64,000 bases of DNA, taken from NCBI GenBank assembly GCA_000092065.1, contig CP000592.1; one strand, written 5' to 3'. Shown in pieces: positions 2,348-63,945 of this stretch. Each line of letters opens with the position of its first letter. Within the stretch, counting starts at the first letter, position 1. The translations under genes and the position numbers were made by a program. This DNA comes from Ostreococcus lucimarinus (Eukaryota). The notes beneath the pieces are model-generated. The model ran no database searches, had not been told where the DNA came from, and worked only from the letters and a program-made list of their open reading frames with translations.

Positions 2348-3904
2348 TCACACCGCGGCGCCGTATTGACGGGTTAAATCATTCGCCCTCGCGGATTCTA
2401 ACAGCGCGAAGCTCGAAGACCGCGGAACGTAGCCCGCTTCGGCGGCGTGAGACGTCGAAAGCGCGTGACGATCGCGCGCAGAGACGACTTCGGCGTCCCA
2501 ATCGAGACGGCGCGCGATGACGAAGCCGAGCGCGCCGGTGTGGACCACCGTGGCGACTAAACCGCCGAGAACGAGACCGAGGGCGCCCATGTGCGCACCG
2601 AAGGCTAATGCGAGCGATAGTGGAATACCTATGATCCAGTACGCGACGACGACGATTTTTGCGGCGAGCGATTGCTTACCGCACGCTCGCATCACGCCCG
2701 CTTGCACGGCGCCTGCGCAATCAAACAGCGCGTACGCCGCAAGCGCAATCATGAGCTCGGACACGAGCTCGCGCACCTCTTCACGCGAGGTGAACAAGTT
2801 TGCCCAATCTTTCCTCGCGACGATGATGCCCACGCTCGCGATGACGCCAACGCAGGCGATGAGTTGGAACGAGACGGCGACGGCGCGCCGCGCCCTCTTA
2901 GCGTTGCCGGCGCCGAGCTCGTGCGTTACGCGCGTCAACGACGCCACGCCGAGCCCGATCGACGCGTCGAACACGAACGCATTCGTACTGCCGTAAATAG
3001 ACAGCGCTGAGAGCGCAATCTCGGGATTCGGCAAGTATCCCGCCATTACTACCGTCATCTCGCTGGCCCACCACTCCATCTTCATAGCAACGCCCGGCAA
3101 CGCGAGCGCGAAGTATTCCCGCAATCCCTCCGTCGAGATCGCGCGTCGCAGTTGCCATCCTGGCCAGCACATATCGCGCTTGAGCGCCAACGCCTCGTCG
3201 CGTTCGCGAAACATTCTTCGCCAGACCGTCGCGTACGCCACCTGCGTAGCCAAACAAACCGCCGACGACGCGCTCCACGCCAACGCCGCGCCGATGACCC
3301 CGATCTCCCATCGCCACACGAAGTAATAGCACAAAATCGGATGCGCGATCGCCGCGAGCACGCCGCCCAACGCCTGCGGCCGCGTGATTCCCTGCGAATG
3401 CAAGTACGTCATCGTGCACTGCGTCCACGCGTAGCACAACACCCCCGGCGTCGCCGCTCGCAAAAATCGTCCCGCCTCGCGACTCACGCCCGCGTCTTGC
3501 CCCGTCGCCGCTAAAAATTCCTCACCCCTCGTCGCGAACACCGCGCACGTCAACGCCGCGTACGTCGTCGTCACCAAGAGCGCGCGTTGCGTCGTCTCTC
3601 CCACGCGCTCGTACGCCCCTAATCCGTACGCCGTACCGGCCAGCGTGTTCACCGCGCTCGCCAGTCCCACCAGCACCGATTTACACGCGATGTTTATCGT
3701 CGTCATCGCGAGCGCGGCGCCCGCGAGCTCGACCGTCGCGCGCGCTCGTCCGACGAAGACGAGCGTCACTAAATCTCTCAGCGTGTTCATCGTCATCGAC
3801 ACGCTCACCGGGATCGCGAGCGCGATCTGCGCCGCGCGCTCGACGCTCGCGCCGTCGTCGTCGTCGTCGTCGCCCGCCGCGCCGTCGCGATCGTCCGCGC
3901 CCAT
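2348..3904 (-). CDS. MATE (multidrug and toxic compound extrusion / DTX-type) efflux transporter.
   Basis: 518 aa with about 12 predicted TM helices. Typical MATE layout with an acidic N-terminus (DDDDDDG). The motifs LATQIQ..., VGLGVASLTRV and GNAKRARRA resemble eukaryotic MATE proteins. Confidence 0.75.
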   Translation of the reverse strand: MGADDRDGAAGDDDDDDGASVERAAQIALAIPVSVSMTMNTLRDLVTLVFVGRARATVELAGAALAMTTINIACKSVLVGLASAVNTLAGTAYGLGAYERVGETTQRALLVTTTYAALTCAVFATRGEEFLAATGQDAGVSREAGRFLRAATPGVLCYAWTQCTMTYLHSQGITRPQALGGVLAAIAHPILCYYFVWRWEIGVIGAALAWSASSAVCLATQVAYATVWRRMFRERDEALALKRDMCWPGWQLRRAISTEGLREYFALALPGVAMKMEWWASEMTVVMAGYLPNPEIALSALSIYGSTNAFVFDASIGLGVASLTRVTHELGAGNAKRARRAVAVSFQLIACVGVIASVGIIVARKDWANLFTSREEVRELVSELMIALAAYALFDCAGAVQAGVMRACGKQSLAAKIVVVAYWIIGIPLSLALAFGAHMGALGLVLGGLVATVVHTGALGFVIARRLDWDAEVVSARDRHALSTSHAAEAGYVPRSSSFALLESARANDLTRQYGAAV

Positions 3905-58234: not shown

Positions 58235-59503
58235 CTACTGACGCTTCGCGCGCTTGGCGTCGTGTCTCGCGGGCTTCGCCTCGTCGTCGGGCGGTTTGTC
58301 GCCCTCGTGCGTGATCTTACGGTGTGGATACACGATTCTGTGCTCGCCAGCGGCGAGTTCGTAATCAAATATGTTCCTCGTCGGCTCCGGTTCGGTCTTG
58401 GCGAAGTAATCCATGGCCGTGAGCGCCTCGAACGCCGTCGGACGTCGCTCGGGGTCGTACGCGCAGAGCTCGTCGAAGACGGCGGCGAGTTCGGGATCGC
58501 TCCGCATCGGCGAGCTTTCGTCCGCGGGAACGCCCTCGGGGTGCTCGGGCGGATAAAAGAACTTCTTCGCGCGTTCGTAATACGGATGTTCCCTGAGCAA
58601 AGGCCACGTCTCTTCGCTCGGCGTGCCTTTGCATCTCACGATGGCTTCGATTTGCTCCTCTTGGTACATCGTTCTCGGGTCCTCCTTACCCTTCGGCACG
58701 CCCTTGAACGGCACGACGAGCGTGCAGAGTTCGGCGAAAATGCACCCAGCGGCCCAAATGTCGACCGCACGCGTGTAATGTCGCGCCCCGAGCAACAGCT
58801 CGGGCGCGCGATACCACAAAGTCACCACTGGTCCGTTTTCGTGCAACGGCTTGAGCAAAGTCCCCGGGTCCACGAACCGCGCCAAACCGAAATCGGCAAT
58901 CTTCACCACCCCGCACTCGCTCCCATCGCCCATCACGAGCACGTTTTGCGGCTTTATGTCCCTGTGCATGATCCAATTCGAGTGCAAATAATGCAATCCG
59001 TGCAACAACTGCCACGTCGCGCTCTTCACCATCCGTCTCGACACCAACCGTCGATGCCTTCGATGCCACGTCAATATCACCCCCAAATCGTACTCCGCGT
59101 AATCTATCGCCAACGACAGCGACCGTTCCTCCTTATTCACGATCACCCGGTGCAAGTGCACGATGTTTTCGTGCTTCATCGCTCGCAGCGTCGTCACCTC
59201 GCGAAACGTCGGCGTCGGCAGTCCCACGACTTGATCCCTCGCGATCGCCCCCGTCTTCGCGTCCCGTCGCACGGGCGGCGTCTTGAACGTCTTAATCGCG
59301 TACACTCGACCTGCATCAAGCGCGCGCGCGCGCGTCCCGTCAGTCCTCGCGCCCTCGTCGCGTCCTCGCGCGCCCTCGTCGTTCGATCGCGTCGCGAATC
59401 ATCCGTCGCGCCGCGCCTCGCGCGCACCCGCCGTCGTCCGCGCGTACATCACGCGTCCGAACGCGCCCTCCCCGATCTGTCCCACGATCTCGCCGTCGTC
59501 CAT
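58235..59503 (-). CDS. CDK8: Cyclin-dependent kinase 8-like (Mediator kinase module CDK8/CDKE), two exons.
   Basis: Exon 1 is 59503..~59428: MDDGEIVGQIGEGAFGRVMYARTTAG (Gly loop). The intron is about 117 nt: GTGCGC...gGACTGAC...CAG. Exon 2 is ~59310..58235: ...YAIKTFK..., PTPTFREVTTLRAMKHENIV (compare SACREIALLREL), HRDIKPQN, KIADFGLAR and WYRAPELLLGARHYT. The ORF track starts exon 2 at a GTG codon. Confidence 0.75.
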
Positions 59504-59678: not shown

Positions 59679-60670
59679 ATGAGCGACGCGGAGGACGAAG
59701 ATCTCACCGCGATCGTCGAGGCGGGCGAGGACGCGGTCGACCGGAGCGTGCACCCGAGCGGGATCGTGCCGGTGCTGCAGTGCGTGTCGAGCGAGGCGAA
59801 AACCCGCGCGCACTCGCGCGCGGCGCTCGACGCGCGGAAGAGCGCGGCGTCGGGGAGGCGCGGCGAGGGAATTCATTCGGCGCGGAATTCAATTGGCGCG
59901 ACGCATTCGGCGCGCGCGGGAAGCGGCGCGGACGAAGGCGAAGCGAGCGTCGCGAGGGCGATGGACTGACGACGCGATGCGCGCGCGTAGGAATATCGTG
60001 GCGACGGTGAACCTGGACTGTAAGCTGGATCTGAAGACGATCGCGTTTCACGCGAGAAACGTCGAGTATAATCCAAAGGTGCGGCAACCCTAAGGCGACG
60101 CGGCGAGAGACGCGCGAAACGCGCGCGATGGGTGCGACGATGACTGACGACGAACGACGGTGGTTTGAATGCGCGTAGCGATTCGCGGCGGCGATCATGC
60201 GGATTCGTAATCCGAAGACGACGGCGTTGATTTTCAGCTCGGGCAAGATGGTGTGCACGGGCGCGAAGACGGAGGCGTTGGCGCGCGAGGCGGCGCGAAA
60301 ATACGCCAAGGTCATCATCAAGCTCGGATTTCCCGCGCAATTCAAAGACTTTAAGATTCAAAACATGGTCGGTTCGTGCGACGTGCAGTTTCCGATTCGA
60401 TTGGAAGGCTTGGCTTGGCAGCACGGCCACTTCGCGCAGTACGAGCCCGAACTCTTTCCGGGTTTGATTTACCGCATGCAAATGCCCAAGATTGTGCTCT
60501 TAATCTTCGTGTCGGGGAAGATTGTGTTGACCGGCGGCAAGCGTCGCGAGGATATATACCAGGCGTTCGAGAATATATACCCCGTGCTCACAGAGTTTAA
60601 AAAGCTCGCGCAGCCGGACGAAGCCGCCGCGGCGCCCAAGGCGCTCCCGGCGGCCAAGGGGAAAAAATAG
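59679..60670 (+). CDS. TBP: TATA-box-binding protein (TBP), three exons.
   Basis: Exons are 59679..59779 (...SGIVPVLQ), 59991..60078 ([29 protein letters not shown]) and 60179..60670 ([32 protein letters not shown]...second repeat). Both introns begin GTGCG(T/G) and carry GACTGACGACG 19-29 nt before (C/T)AG. The frames check against three ORF-track entries. Confidence 0.85.
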
Positions 60671-61173
60671 AGCGATCAGCACCAAATAGAAACACACACA
60701 CAGAGGGGAGAGAGAAAGAGGGAAACGCAGCGCGCGCGCGCGGAGACGGAGACAGAGGAGAGGAGAAGAGAGAGAAGAGAAGAGAAGAGACGGAGGAGAA
60801 TTTCAAACCAAAAGTAGTAGAGCTAGCCGACGCGCGTCGCATCTCGAGACCACCGCGCGCGCGTGTCGCGGTCCGGGCGTTCGTCCCACCGCGCGCCCGC
60901 GCGTTTCTCGAGTCGCGCACGCCGATACAACATTCGCCTCATCGCGACGACGAGAGCTCGTCCGCGCGTGTAATCGCGAACCAACGTCAAAACCATCAAT
61001 CATCACACGTCGTACGAGCATTCAGTGACACGACACTTATAAATCACCATCAAAAACCCGCGGAATACGACGATCGAGGTCGAGATCCGCTCGTATCCGC
61101 CCACCGTTCGGATCGCGGGCGCGACGCGATCGACACTCGGCGACGACGCGCGCGACACACCGCGCCGCACACG

Positions 61174-62707
61174 ATGCTCACGTTGACGCGCACGCAAATC
61201 ACGCTCCCCGCCCGCGCGCCCGCGCGCGCGAGGCGCACGGCGCGCACGGCGCAAAGCGCGCGCGTCATCGCGCGCGCGCGGACGTCCGCGGTCGTCGAGG
61301 ATGAATTCGCGACGGACGACGACGTCGTCAGACGAGGACAGGTGCGCGCGAACGACCGCGGGCGCGATGCGCAAGAATTCGATGCGTCGCGCGGTAGGAC
61401 GCGCGAACGCGCGCGGGCGTCGATGGACGCGCGAGGGCGACGAAGCGATCGATCGGACGGGGGTGCGATCGATATCTGGATAAATGGCGCGCGCTGGAAA
61501 ACGACGCGTTCGGTCGAACGCTGACGGCGATGCGACGCGTGAGGGCGGAGAAAGGGCGAAAGGTAAAATGTGTGAACGAATGACTGACGACGTGACGCGC
61601 GATGCGGTGCTTTCGCGATCGTAGACGGCGGCTATGGCGACGGCGGCTTCCATGTTTTTCGCGGATCGCGCCGACGCGGCGCAAGAGTTGATGCAAACCG
61701 CGCTCGATGGACGCCCGCTCATCTTCTTGGCGGTGTTTGGACCGGTCTTGGGTTGGGTGGCGTATAACATTCTCTCCCCGGGGTTGAGACAGCTTGAAAA
61801 CATGCAAGCGGTGAACGCAAAGTCGAGCAAGAAGCGCGCCGCCGGCGCGCTGGCGGGCGGCTTGACGGCGAGTGCCTTGATGGGCATGCCGGAAGCGTCT
61901 GATGCGGCTCAAAACGTTGCGGATCTTGCCGGCATCGATGGCCGCATCGCCATCTTTTTTGTGTTCGCCCCGGTTCTCGGCTGGGTGGCGTACAACATTC
62001 TCGGCCCGGGTCTTCGTCAGTTCGAAGACATGCAAAAGGCTGCCGCGAAGAAGAAGGGTGTGCTCGCGGGTGCGGGTCTCTCGGCTGCCGCTTTGATGGG
62101 CATGCCGGAAGCCTCCGACGCTGCGGAACAGCTCGGTGAGCTCGCCGGCATCGATGGCCGCATCGCCATCTTTTTTGTGTTCGCCCCGGTTCTCGGCTGG
62201 GTGGCGTACAACATTCTCGGCCCGGGTCTTCGTCAGTTCGAAGACATGCAAAAGGCTGCCGCGAAGAAGAAGGGTGTGCTCGCGGGTGCGGGTCTCTCGG
62301 CTGCCGCTTTGATGGGCATGCCGGAAGCGTCTGATGCGGCTCAAGAAATTGGCACCCTCGCTGGCATCGATGGCCGCATCGCCATCTTTTTTGTGTTCGC
62401 CCCGGTTCTCGGCTGGGTGGCGTACAACATTCTCGGCCCGGGTCTTCGTCAGTTCGAAGACATGCAAAAGGCTGCCGCGAAGAAGAAGGGTGTGCTCGCG
62501 GGTGCGGGTCTCTCGGCTGCCGCTTTGATGGGCATGCCGGAAGCCTCCGACGCTGCGGAACAGCTCGGTGAGCTCGCCGGCATCGATGGCCGCATCGCCA
62601 TCTTTTTTGTGTTCGCCCCGGTTCTCGGCTGGGTGGCGTACAACATTCTCGGCCCGGGTCTTCGTCAGTTCGAAGACATGCAAAAGGCTGCCGCGAAGAA
62701 GAAGTAG
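61174..62707 (+). CDS. psbY: Photosystem II PsbY polyprotein precursor with five tandem PsbY units, preceded by a transit-peptide exon.
   Basis: Exon 1 is 61174..61341: MLTLTRTQITLPARAPARARRTARTAQSARVIARARTSAVVED...RRGQ. Intron 61342..61624 runs GTGCGCG...aTGACTGAC...GTAG. Exon 2 is 61625..62707 and carries five units: x-F-x-x-A/F-x-P-V-L-G-W-V-A-Y-N-I-L-x-P-G-L-R-Q-x-E-(N/D)-M-Q, each followed by a spacer with an AxA site. Confidence 0.75.
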
Positions 62708-62880
62708 ACATTTCGCAAGAGCTGCGTCAAGTCTCCGATTCACGAACTCGACAACAAACACATAGTATTTAGTCCTCCGAGAACGTTGCGCTCTCGACAG
62801 AGCATCGCTCGAAAATGCAAGCTTGTAACACATAACCTGTGAGCTTATCAATCTAAAATCATGTTACACGCGAACGGAAG

Positions 62881-63945
62881 CTAGTTTTGCGGAAAGAGAT
62901 CGGCGAAAGGATCCTTTACGGACGTTCCCTTCGCGGTGCCTCCGCTCAAGGAAACCTGACCGCCCGTCTTCGGCGGCGTTGCCTTCGGAGGCGTCAAGGA
63001 CATCAAATCTACCTGTGCAAGTAGATCAACGGATGTTGACGCTTGAGCTGCGCTCGTCGTGGGCACGACGAGTTCCGATAAGAGATCCACAGCCGGTGGC
63101 GACGCTTGAGCGGATTTCATCGTCGCAGCGCCTCTCGGTGGGGGCGCAAATGGCGTGATTGCTTCTTTCGCGCGCGTGGGGGCAGGCGCATCGCCGAACA
63201 ATGCGTCTGCGAGTTTCATCTTCGTATCATCCGCCGTGTGTTCTGGTGGCCGAACGGACGGTTGAGCGGGCACGTTCTCAAACCCGCCGAGGAACGACTC
63301 CAAGTCATTCTTTCGCGCCGCCGCCGCCGCGGGTCGAATTGGTGGCGGCAGTCCTTCTGGGACGATATCCGACGAGTGCGTCGTTTGATGATGCTCAAAC
63401 ACTAAAGGACCCGTCCCACGCGATGCATTCGTAGTGTCTTTCATTCGAGACTCGATGGCACGCACGCGTGCCTCGGCGTCCGCCGCCGCCGCAGCGTCTC
63501 GTTGCGCCTTTTCCTGGTACGGCTTTGCACCGTTTGCGAGCGCATTTGAGACGTATTGATTCAGCATACTCAGCGATGCATCCACGTTGACATCTACTGC
63601 GGAAGGTGCGATGACACCCGAAAGTATCTGCGTCTCCTCACCCACGAGCACATCGACTTCGAGCGCACGTTGCTGCTTCTCTACGAATTTGCTCTTCGCG
63701 TTTTGCTCGACGAATGCGCGCGCGTTTGGGCTCAACCCACCACTGGCGCGACGTGCTATCTTCGCTATGGCGCTCAAAACTAAAGTCTCAACTGCGGGGC
63801 CATGAATTTGCTTCTCCGTGACTTCAACGAGCATGTCCATCAGCGTCTCGGCGTTCCGACCGCTCAGTTCCCCGAGCTCGCCGAGGACCCAAACCATCGT
63901 CTTCAACAAGACGAGAGGAAGTTTTGGCTTGTGAAGCAAATTCAC
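62881..63945 (-). CDS. C-terminal portion of an adaptin / AP-complex large-subunit-like protein; 5' partial, continuing beyond the window end.
   Basis: ...TMVWVLGELGELSG... is an end-of-trunk alpha-solenoid motif. A Pro/Ala-rich hinge is followed by an appendage-like C-terminus. The ORF is open to its upstream end near the window edge. Confidence 0.35.
   Translation of the reverse strand: MNLLHKPKLPLVLLKTMVWVLGELGELSGRNAETLMDMLVEVTEKQIHGPAVETLVLSAIAKIARRASGGLSPNARAFVEQNAKSKFVEKQQRALEVDVLVGEETQILSGVIAPSAVDVNVDASLSMLNQYVSNALANGAKPYQEKAQRDAAAAADAEARVRAIESRMKDTTNASRGTGPLVFEHHQTTHSSDIVPEGLPPPIRPAAAAARKNDLESFLGGFENVPAQPSVRPPEHTADDTKMKLADALFGDAPAPTRAKEAITPFAPPPRGAATMKSAQASPPAVDLLSELVVPTTSAAQASTSVDLLAQVDLMSLTPPKATPPKTGGQVSLSGGTAKGTSVKDPFADLFPQN

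Follow-up and report, generated by a model that had tools for sequence, protein, structure and literature searches.

A five-unit psbY precursor gene in Ostreococcus lucimarinus, with downstream units that appear to be kept alike by gene conversion or unequal exchange

How many copies of the small photosystem II subunit PsbY does the psbY gene of the green picoalga Ostreococcus lucimarinus encode, and does the close likeness of those copies tell us when they arose? The window (the whole 64,000-nucleotide stretch of DNA that was analysed) carries a two-exon gene on its plus strand at 61174-62707, made up of exon 1 (61174-61341, 56 codons), an intron of 283 nt (61342-61624) and exon 2 (61625-62707, 360 codons plus stop). 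In exon 2 a module of three parts occurs five times, namely a hydrophobic, signal-like segment, then an (A/S)-x-A site, then a PsbY helix. The joined exons encode a product of 416 amino acids that is 100% identical to GenBank XP_001420585.1 from O. lucimarinus CCE9901 (also ABO98878.1 and UniProt A4S5C8), which is labelled "possible psbY, PSII-Y, photosystem II polypeptide". That record has the same two exons at the same locus, and the window gene does not differ from it. We took the identity of the product from a protein search and a cluster look-up; an exact look-up of the 416-residue product in the contig index returned no record. The long open reading frame of exon 2 (61634-62707, 357 aa) was searched for the PsbY family profile, and Pfam PF06298 matched it in five separate stretches (E=4e-39, 132.6 bits against a curated cutoff of 24), in agreement with the original prediction that the gene encodes a five-unit PsbY polyprotein. 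The locus is the nuclear psbY of O. lucimarinus, and its single precursor contains five PsbY copies. GenBank already lists the gene with its splice model, and precursors with several PsbY copies have been described before for green algae. The reading that best accounts for the evidence as a whole, and that is very probably correct, is a nuclear psbY with a transit exon and five processed units, the array being kept alike by gene conversion.

The neighbours of the gene are a protein kinase (58235-59305, minus strand), TBP (60197-60670, plus strand) and an open reading frame at 62881-63945 (minus strand) that sits where an adaptin gene stands in related loci. The order kinase, TBP, psbY, adaptin is kept across the Ostreococcus loci, which have the same synteny as the window. 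Two long antisense reading frames (507 and 330 aa) were considered as genes and rejected; they are reverse frames of a GC-rich repeat, and a Pfam-supported, conserved gene occupies the sense strand opposite them. A search of Rfam for intron-encoded or UTR RNAs gave no family match in 60700-63000 at E values up to 1.

The 357-aa reading frame starts within the first signal-like segment (TAAMATAASMFFADRADA, 61625-61678, plus strand), which ends in A-D-A, and so comes without a targeting sequence. Exon 1, which ends in ..VVRRGQ and corresponds to residues 1-56 of XP_001420585.1, is chloroplast transit-peptide-like: its first 40 residues include 9 Arg, 10 Ala and 7 Thr and no acidic residue by composition count, a composition that fits a predicted chloroplast transit peptide, and the exon is conserved across species. 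The intron between the two exons is in phase 0, with a GTGCGC donor, a branch-like motif (TGACTGAC) containing CTGAC at 61584-61588, and a TAG acceptor. Reading through from exon 1 meets a stop at 61522-61524, and the two exons join in frame. The absence of a transit peptide from the long frame, its supply by an in-frame exon at 61174-61341 and the 283-nt GTGCG...CTGAC...AG intron had all been proposed from the letters of the stretch; the coordinates and motifs proved to be as proposed, the splice model is that of XP_001420585.1, and it is conserved in four other lineages.

Those lineages are O. tauri and three Ostreococcus lineages known from metagenomes (L003, L005 and L006), all of which have the intron at the same position and in the same phase. 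The annotated O. tauri gene has a 51-codon first exon, an intron of 270 nt (GTACG...TTGACTGACG...CAG) and the phase-0 junction ..RGQ/TAAM.. (the slash marks the exon junction), which is the same as in the window. L003, L005 and L006 have equivalent exons ending in ..RGQ, followed by introns of 406, 265 and 272 nt, respectively. The splice signals in these four lineages are a GT[GA]CG donor, a (T)GACTGAC branch-like motif and a YAG acceptor, while the introns vary in length (265 to 406 nt) and are unlike in sequence between lineages. Across the exon junction, the residues G-Q-T-A-A do not vary among six Mamiellales sequences, the annotated proteins of O. tauri and Micromonas pusilla among them, and the AxA/A site (here the slash marks the predicted cleavage point) at the end of the first signal-like segment is conserved in these six as well. 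Among wild strains, exon 1 is open and the splice signals are intact in all seven of the five-unit contigs that were read; this includes L017, where exon 1 differs by 5 substitutions and the intron by 14.

This conservation bears on whether there is an upstream exon at all. An in-frame ATG is present at 61634, and prokaryote-style gene callers annotate exactly the 357-aa frame in metagenomes, so that translation might be taken to begin there, with no upstream exon, to give a product that is untargeted or differently targeted. Such a start would, however, fall inside the first signal-like segment and leave a nucleus-encoded thylakoid protein without a transit peptide, and the frame is open upstream of 61634 as far as the acceptor at 61625. 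The invariant GQ/TAA junction also argues against it, as does the retention of the donor, branch and acceptor motifs and of the phase in introns that otherwise vary in length and sequence between lineages. We consider initiation at 61634 to be highly unlikely, and return to the spliced, 416-aa precursor. When metatranscriptome proteins were searched with the N-terminal 127 aa for a spliced, transcript-derived protein, the matches were genomic reading frames only, including ones that read through from exon 1 into the intron (P0074 and P0075). Bathycoccus-like proteins occur in spliced and unspliced forms, and the stretch in which these differ lies directly ahead of the first hydrophobic segment.

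Along the 416-aa precursor, five weak, signal-like hydrophobic segments (hydropathy peaks of 1.4-1.9) alternate with five PsbY helices (peaks of 2.2-2.3), ten segments in all. There are five [AS]-x-A sites, each before an Ala, and each PsbY helix ends in a Lys-rich tail. Five units, each placed after a signal-like segment with a small-x-small motif, thus share one reading frame, where two such units would be enough to define a polyprotein, and the AxA/A site recurs across Mamiellales homologues. In the two-unit precursor of Arabidopsis, as summarised in PMC4823308 and PMC11640958 from Thompson et al. 1999 and Mant & Robinson 1998, dual signal peptides drive an SRP- and Sec-independent insertion that is followed by proteolytic processing. 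By analogy, exon 1 would encode the stromal targeting (transit) peptide and each pair of signal and helix would enter the thylakoid in hairpin form. On the lumenal side, the thylakoid processing peptidase would then cut after (A/S)-x-A, at sites that are predicted from the motif, and a stromal protease would cut after the Lys-rich tail and so separate the units. Five PsbY peptides with one helix each would result, in four kinds (one from unit 1, one A, two B and one A'), of at most 5.4-5.8 kDa and lying next to cytochrome b559; the predicted masses for units 1-5, with the lumenal cut only and the Lys-rich tail kept, are 5842, 5420, 5449, 5421 and 5449 Da.

The residues by which PsbY touches its neighbours can be followed from unit to unit. 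In the Chlorella ohadii structure (PDB 9hd7), Arg324, a Trp, Asn342 and Gln350 of PsbY contact PsbE, PsbF and PsbR (PMC12789144). When the units are aligned to chain U of that entry (9hd7_U), Arg324, Asn342 and Gln350 fall on an R, an N and a Q of every unit and the Trp is conserved, the residues concerned being the R of DGR, the W of GW, the N of YNIL and the Q of LRQ. Every unit therefore has a single helix with the residues that contact cytochrome b559 and PsbR, and since these contact residues are present throughout, all five units look, from their sequence, competent for contacts within PSII.

The five units are not equally related. Unit 1 has a type I core (PLIFLAVFGPVLGWVAYNIL, 61679-61837) that is divergent from units 2-5, with nucleotide identities of 67% to the downstream cores and of 72-82% to unit 1 of other Ostreococcus lineages. 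Units 2 (A, 61907-62056), 3 (B, 62123-62272) and 4 (A', 62339-62488) have the predicted mature N-termini AQNVADLAG, AEQLGELAG and AQEIGTLAG, respectively, and unit 5 (62555-62704) is a B unit equal to unit 3; all lie on the plus strand. Tandem Repeats Finder (TRF) reports a period of 216 nt and 3.8 copies over 61877-62704, with a fifth, divergent unit 228 nt upstream at 72% nucleotide identity. Units 2-5 are 100% identical outside a 34-nt variable patch, which occupies 61897-61930 in unit 2 (plus strand), has homologues at 62113-62146, 62329-62362 and 62545-62578, and contains the only differences among these four units. The A' patch (QEIGTL) represents a third type next to A (QNVADL) and B (EQLGEL), rather than a copy of A. 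The B-type patch AE(Q/K)LG(D/E)LAG also marks the last unit in O. tauri, L003 and L005, as AEQLGDLAG in L003 and L005 (both with the order 1-A-B) and as AEKLGDLAG in O. tauri.

Pairwise comparison within the array gave a graded picture. Units 3 and 5 agree at 180 of 180 comparable nucleotides; units 2 and 4 agree at 206 of 216, with 10 differences that all fall in the 18 nt of 61913-61930; and units 2 and 3 agree at 202 of 216, with 14 differences that all fall in 61897-61927. At a lag of 432 nt there is an exact run of 342 nt starting at 61931. The original prediction held both the pair 3/5 and the pair 2/4 to be near-identical. The former are in fact identical, while the latter are indeed close but barely closer to each other than units 2 and 3 are. 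Units 2 and 4 do share six synonymous states at 61897-61910 (GCG TCT GAT GCG GCT CAA), against GCC TCC GAC GCT GCG GAA in units 3 and 5, and it is because of these six positions, together with the identity of units 3 and 5, that an (AB)(AB) arrangement can be recognised, in the form (A B)(A' B). The identical antisense 65-aa reading frames at 62017-62214 and 62449-62646 that were first taken as a sign of this arrangement are present in the ORF list, and are the reverse frame of the repeat.

Repeat counts in assembled DNA call for independent evidence, and an artefact of assembly had been named at the outset as something that would weaken the call. At least five samples (ENA ERZ10646527/569/592/601 and JGI 3300046163) yielded environmental contigs with the exact 357-aa frame, 11 in all and 24-543 kb long, and the count stands. 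The seven five-unit contigs that were read have the same length and the same order, 1-A-B-A'-B, are 97.4-99.8% identical to the window over the 3.9-kb locus, and each carry their own flanking SNPs. Shorter arrays are also frequent. Near-identical (at least 99%) short-read contigs (MEGAHIT k127 or k141, JGI) carry three or four units in several orders: 1-A-B on 50 contigs, and further 1-A'-B, 1-A-A', 1-B-B, 1-A-B-B, 1-A-B-A' and 1-A-A'-B. Over 3.95 kb, one three-unit locus (L009) matches the window at 99.87% identity and is short by exactly 432 bp.

Such contigs, and above all the many that read 1-A-B, are what one would cite for a true gene of three units, with the count of five produced by expansion or a mis-join during assembly. 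The short versions come, however, in nearly every order, as would be expected if paths through an exact repeat of 185 nt had been collapsed or bubble-merged, and in three of the 3-unit contigs the 1.5-kb upstream flank is the same as in a five-unit contig placed earlier in the comparison. In assembly, the collapse of repeats is far commoner than their expansion. Against an artefact we also set the independence of the 11 large contigs and the private flanking SNPs of the seven that were read, and we judge a true count of three to be very improbable. The path that recurs both in large contigs and in the finished genome is the longest and most complex one, and we conclude that five units are real for the O. 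lucimarinus lineage. The shorter versions would mostly be assembly artefacts that arise from collapsed paths through the 185-nt repeat, and some of the three- or four-unit versions may be real copy-number polymorphism.

Scans of metagenomes with the patches themselves need to be read with the same care. A scan with the A' patch (CAAGAAATTGGCACCCTCGCTGGC) gave 0 hits, because at 62362 the window has a synonymous T of its own, in place of the C present in each of the seven wild five-unit contigs that were read, and the result says nothing on whether A' is absent from wild populations. A scan with the B patch gave three loci, L008, L009 (the three-unit locus above) and L010. We rejected L010 as evidence on unit number, as it matches the window only from within the B patch onward, and L008 as a PsbY locus, as it is unrelated, matches by chance and contains no reading frame for PsbY.

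With the five units established, the question becomes what their likeness means. The original prediction took the nucleotide identity as the mark of a recent duplication of a 432-bp block, and this part of it is not sustained. In the five lineages compared, the cores of the downstream units show 98-100% identity inside one species and 79-89% from one species to another. Repeats of one genome thus resemble each other more than they resemble their orthologues in other species, the usual hallmark of concerted evolution, while unit 1 forms a type of its own with orthologues in the other species. The A and B cores, and not only the two B cores, are 100% identical in the window, although in L003, L005 and O. 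tauri the A linker is of a different type from the B linker. Uniform mutation would confine the 10 differences between A and A' to 18 of 396 nt with a probability of at most about 1e-11.

A single synonymous site allows the process to be followed among strains. The third position of a Phe codon at 61960 (plus strand), with homologues at 62176, 62392 and 62608, is T in all four downstream units of the window and is variable in wild strains. Written in the order of units 2-5, the site reads TTTT in the window, CTTT in L011, L012 and L014, CTCT in L016, CTCC in L013, and CCCC in L015 and L017; O. tauri, L005 and L006, the outgroups, carry C. One variant is thus present in differing subsets of units in different individuals, at 61960 and at multiples of 216 nt from it, as read from assembled contigs. 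The series covers eight genotypes as they stand in assembled contigs; errors at the T6 run may account for some of the states, although independent samples show these patterns repeatedly. The derived T appears to have been caught at successive stages of its spread from unit to unit, which we read as gene conversion or unequal exchange in progress. From the identity of the cores within species and from the T/C series together, it follows that units 2-5 are in all probability kept alike by gene conversion or unequal exchange, and hence that their identity does not date the duplication.

The opposing account is that AB became ABAB very recently, by simple tandem duplication of a block of two units and 432 bp, and that the copies are alike through shortness of time, with no homogenisation. 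It would explain well the identity of units 3 and 5, the 342-nt exact run at a lag of 432 nt and the six synonymous marks common to units 2 and 4 as against units 3 and 5, and other Ostreococcus lineages carry only 1-A-B. It does not explain why the A and B cores should be equally identical despite their distinct linkers elsewhere, or why the differences between A and A' should cluster so tightly. The linker between B and A' is of the A-to-B type and not of the 1-to-A type, so that no clean 432-bp copy can be delimited. The array is moreover common to strains that have diverged by up to about 2.6% over the 3.9-kb locus, and the T/C site, in mid-spread, differs between units among these strains. 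For these reasons we find a recent, simple block duplication improbable.

Under homogenisation by gene conversion or unequal exchange, the history of the array might be reconstructed as follows. The ancestor would have been 1-A-B, the form that other Ostreococcus lineages still have, and the O. lucimarinus lineage would have passed from it to 1-A-B-A'-B, after which units 2-5 would have been homogenised outside the 34-nt patch. Judged from the lineages and strains compared, the expansion from 1-A-B to five units appears to be specific to the O. lucimarinus lineage and to have taken place before the sampled strains diversified. At least two events would be needed by either route, namely block duplication followed by replacement of the patch, or gains of single units followed by patch exchange; the direction and the number of the duplication steps are what we infer from the present arrays.

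Comparison with other PsbY genes places the window gene among the green algae. The Arabidopsis and spinach precursor (PsbY-A1/A2; PDB 8z9d chain 5, 199 aa) is likewise nuclear-encoded. Its transit peptide is followed by cleavable signal-like segments that alternate with PsbY helices, an AxA-type site stands before each mature unit, and the helix motif GW(V/L)xxNIL is present. The plant precursor differs in having two non-identical units, where the window gene has five, four of which appear to be kept identical by concerted evolution. The contrast with land plants that was drawn at first is correct as far as the two units of the plant precursor go, but it left out the green-algal precursors with three to five units. 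Four copies are reported for C. ohadii and three to five for Micractinium, Volvox, Chlamydomonas and Scenedesmus, against one or two in higher plants, the copies being identical or highly homologous (PMC10416949). Five units are within this known green-algal range. The same paper suggests a viral origin for PsbY polyproteins; our scan of IMG/VR for relatives found none.

The best PDB match of the window product (E=5e-39, in four matched stretches) is a precursor of four units and 367 aa, that of C. ohadii (PDB 9hd7/8bd3). Chlorophyte precursors of this kind share with the window gene the identical or near-identical units per transcript and the conserved residues that contact PsbE, PsbF and PsbR. 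They differ in that the window gene belongs to another class (Mamiellophyceae) and has five units, three linker types and a divergent first unit. Within the Mamiellales, we counted three units in O. tauri and in M. pusilla CCMP1545, three to four in other Ostreococcus- and Bathycoccus-like sequences, and seven in the Micromonas-like P0001 and P0004. These genes have the same unit design and AxA/A sites as the window gene, with the GQ/TAA junction present in Ostreococcus and Micromonas; they differ in unit number, from three to seven, and O. tauri is without a type I first unit.

The three N-terminal tails escape the homogenisation that erases all other differences among units 2-5. The three distinct lumenal tails (AQNVADL, AEQLGEL and AQEIGTL) might be kept by selection and give functionally different PsbY isoforms in the PSII of this high-light surface ecotype. 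The unit number (three in other Ostreococcus, five here, seven in the Micromonas-like genomes) might then be adaptive, adjusting the dosage of a subunit with a faster turnover than the remainder of PSII. We offer this as an unlikely reading.

The analysis largely confirms an existing annotation, and what it adds is a clear trace of gene conversion and a warning about repeat collapse. Short-read metagenome assemblies give three or four units in almost every order, and long reads or finished genomes should be trusted for counts of such units. The psbY locus of O. lucimarinus offers a compact and well-sampled case of what appears to be concerted evolution within a coding tandem array, in which a synonymous variant is seen in wild strains at every stage of its spread.

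The gene order around psbY is conserved among the Ostreococcus loci examined. In the window a kinase gene (58235-59305, minus strand) and a TBP gene (60197-60670, plus strand) precede psbY, and an ORF on the minus strand (62881-63945) lies at the adaptin position. The order kinase, TBP, psbY, adaptin is kept in the O. tauri locus (L002) and in two metagenomic Ostreococcus lineages (L005 and L006), and TBP, psbY and adaptin were seen in this order in a third (L003). A Pfam search with the 62881-63945 ORF gave no match; the ORF sits where related loci carry the C-terminal portion of adaptin.

Within this setting the make-up of the array varies. O. tauri psbY (L002 3001-4062, CAID01000012.2) has three units, every one of the downstream type. 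It lacks the divergent type-I unit that opens the array in the window and in L003, L005 and L006; in O. tauri this unit has been either lost or overwritten. In a related Ostreococcus, a pilon-polished contig (L007) carries a four-unit array at 2552-3430, in which unit 1 is a hybrid (QELMQSADVQNVADLAG...) and unit 2 is broken by two compensating frameshifts that may be residual long-read error.

At 62362, in the A' patch, the window has a synonymous T (GCT, Ala) where all seven of the wild five-unit contigs read have C, as do the A and B patches at the matching position. This T is specific to the window and explains why a metagenome scan for the A' patch gave no hits; it reflects either a SNP of the strain or an error in the reference.

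Several other features overlap or adjoin psbY. Two antisense ORFs that span the whole array (507 aa, 61328-62851, and 330 aa, 61719-62711, both minus strand) were rejected as genes, being reverse frames of GC-rich coding DNA derived from the repeat. On the plus strand, exon 1 read on into the intron gives a 116-aa ORF (61174-61524). Two environmental protein matches, P0074 and P0075, are this ORF, labelled by metagenome pipelines as a separate "hypothetical protein"; here a eukaryotic psbY is cut in two by prokaryote-style gene calling. TRF also reported short, imperfect GC-rich tandem repeats in the 5' leader (61118-61165, period 22 nt) and in exon 1 (61224-61262, period 16 nt), which are probably low-complexity GCG-rich sequence typical for the O. 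lucimarinus genome.

Beyond Ostreococcus, two Micromonas-like contigs, 1.4 and 2.3 Mb long (P0001 and P0004), carry PsbY ORFs with seven units, of which six are the same in protein sequence. This number is above the 3-5 units quoted for green algae (PMC10416949). Bathycoccus-like matches show the N-terminus in spliced and unspliced versions (P0026 versus P0048/P0049), which diverge directly before hydrophobic segment 1, between …MAKMV and STETKVEAAK…. This difference points to an intron, shared across Mamiellales, where transit peptide and signal segment meet.
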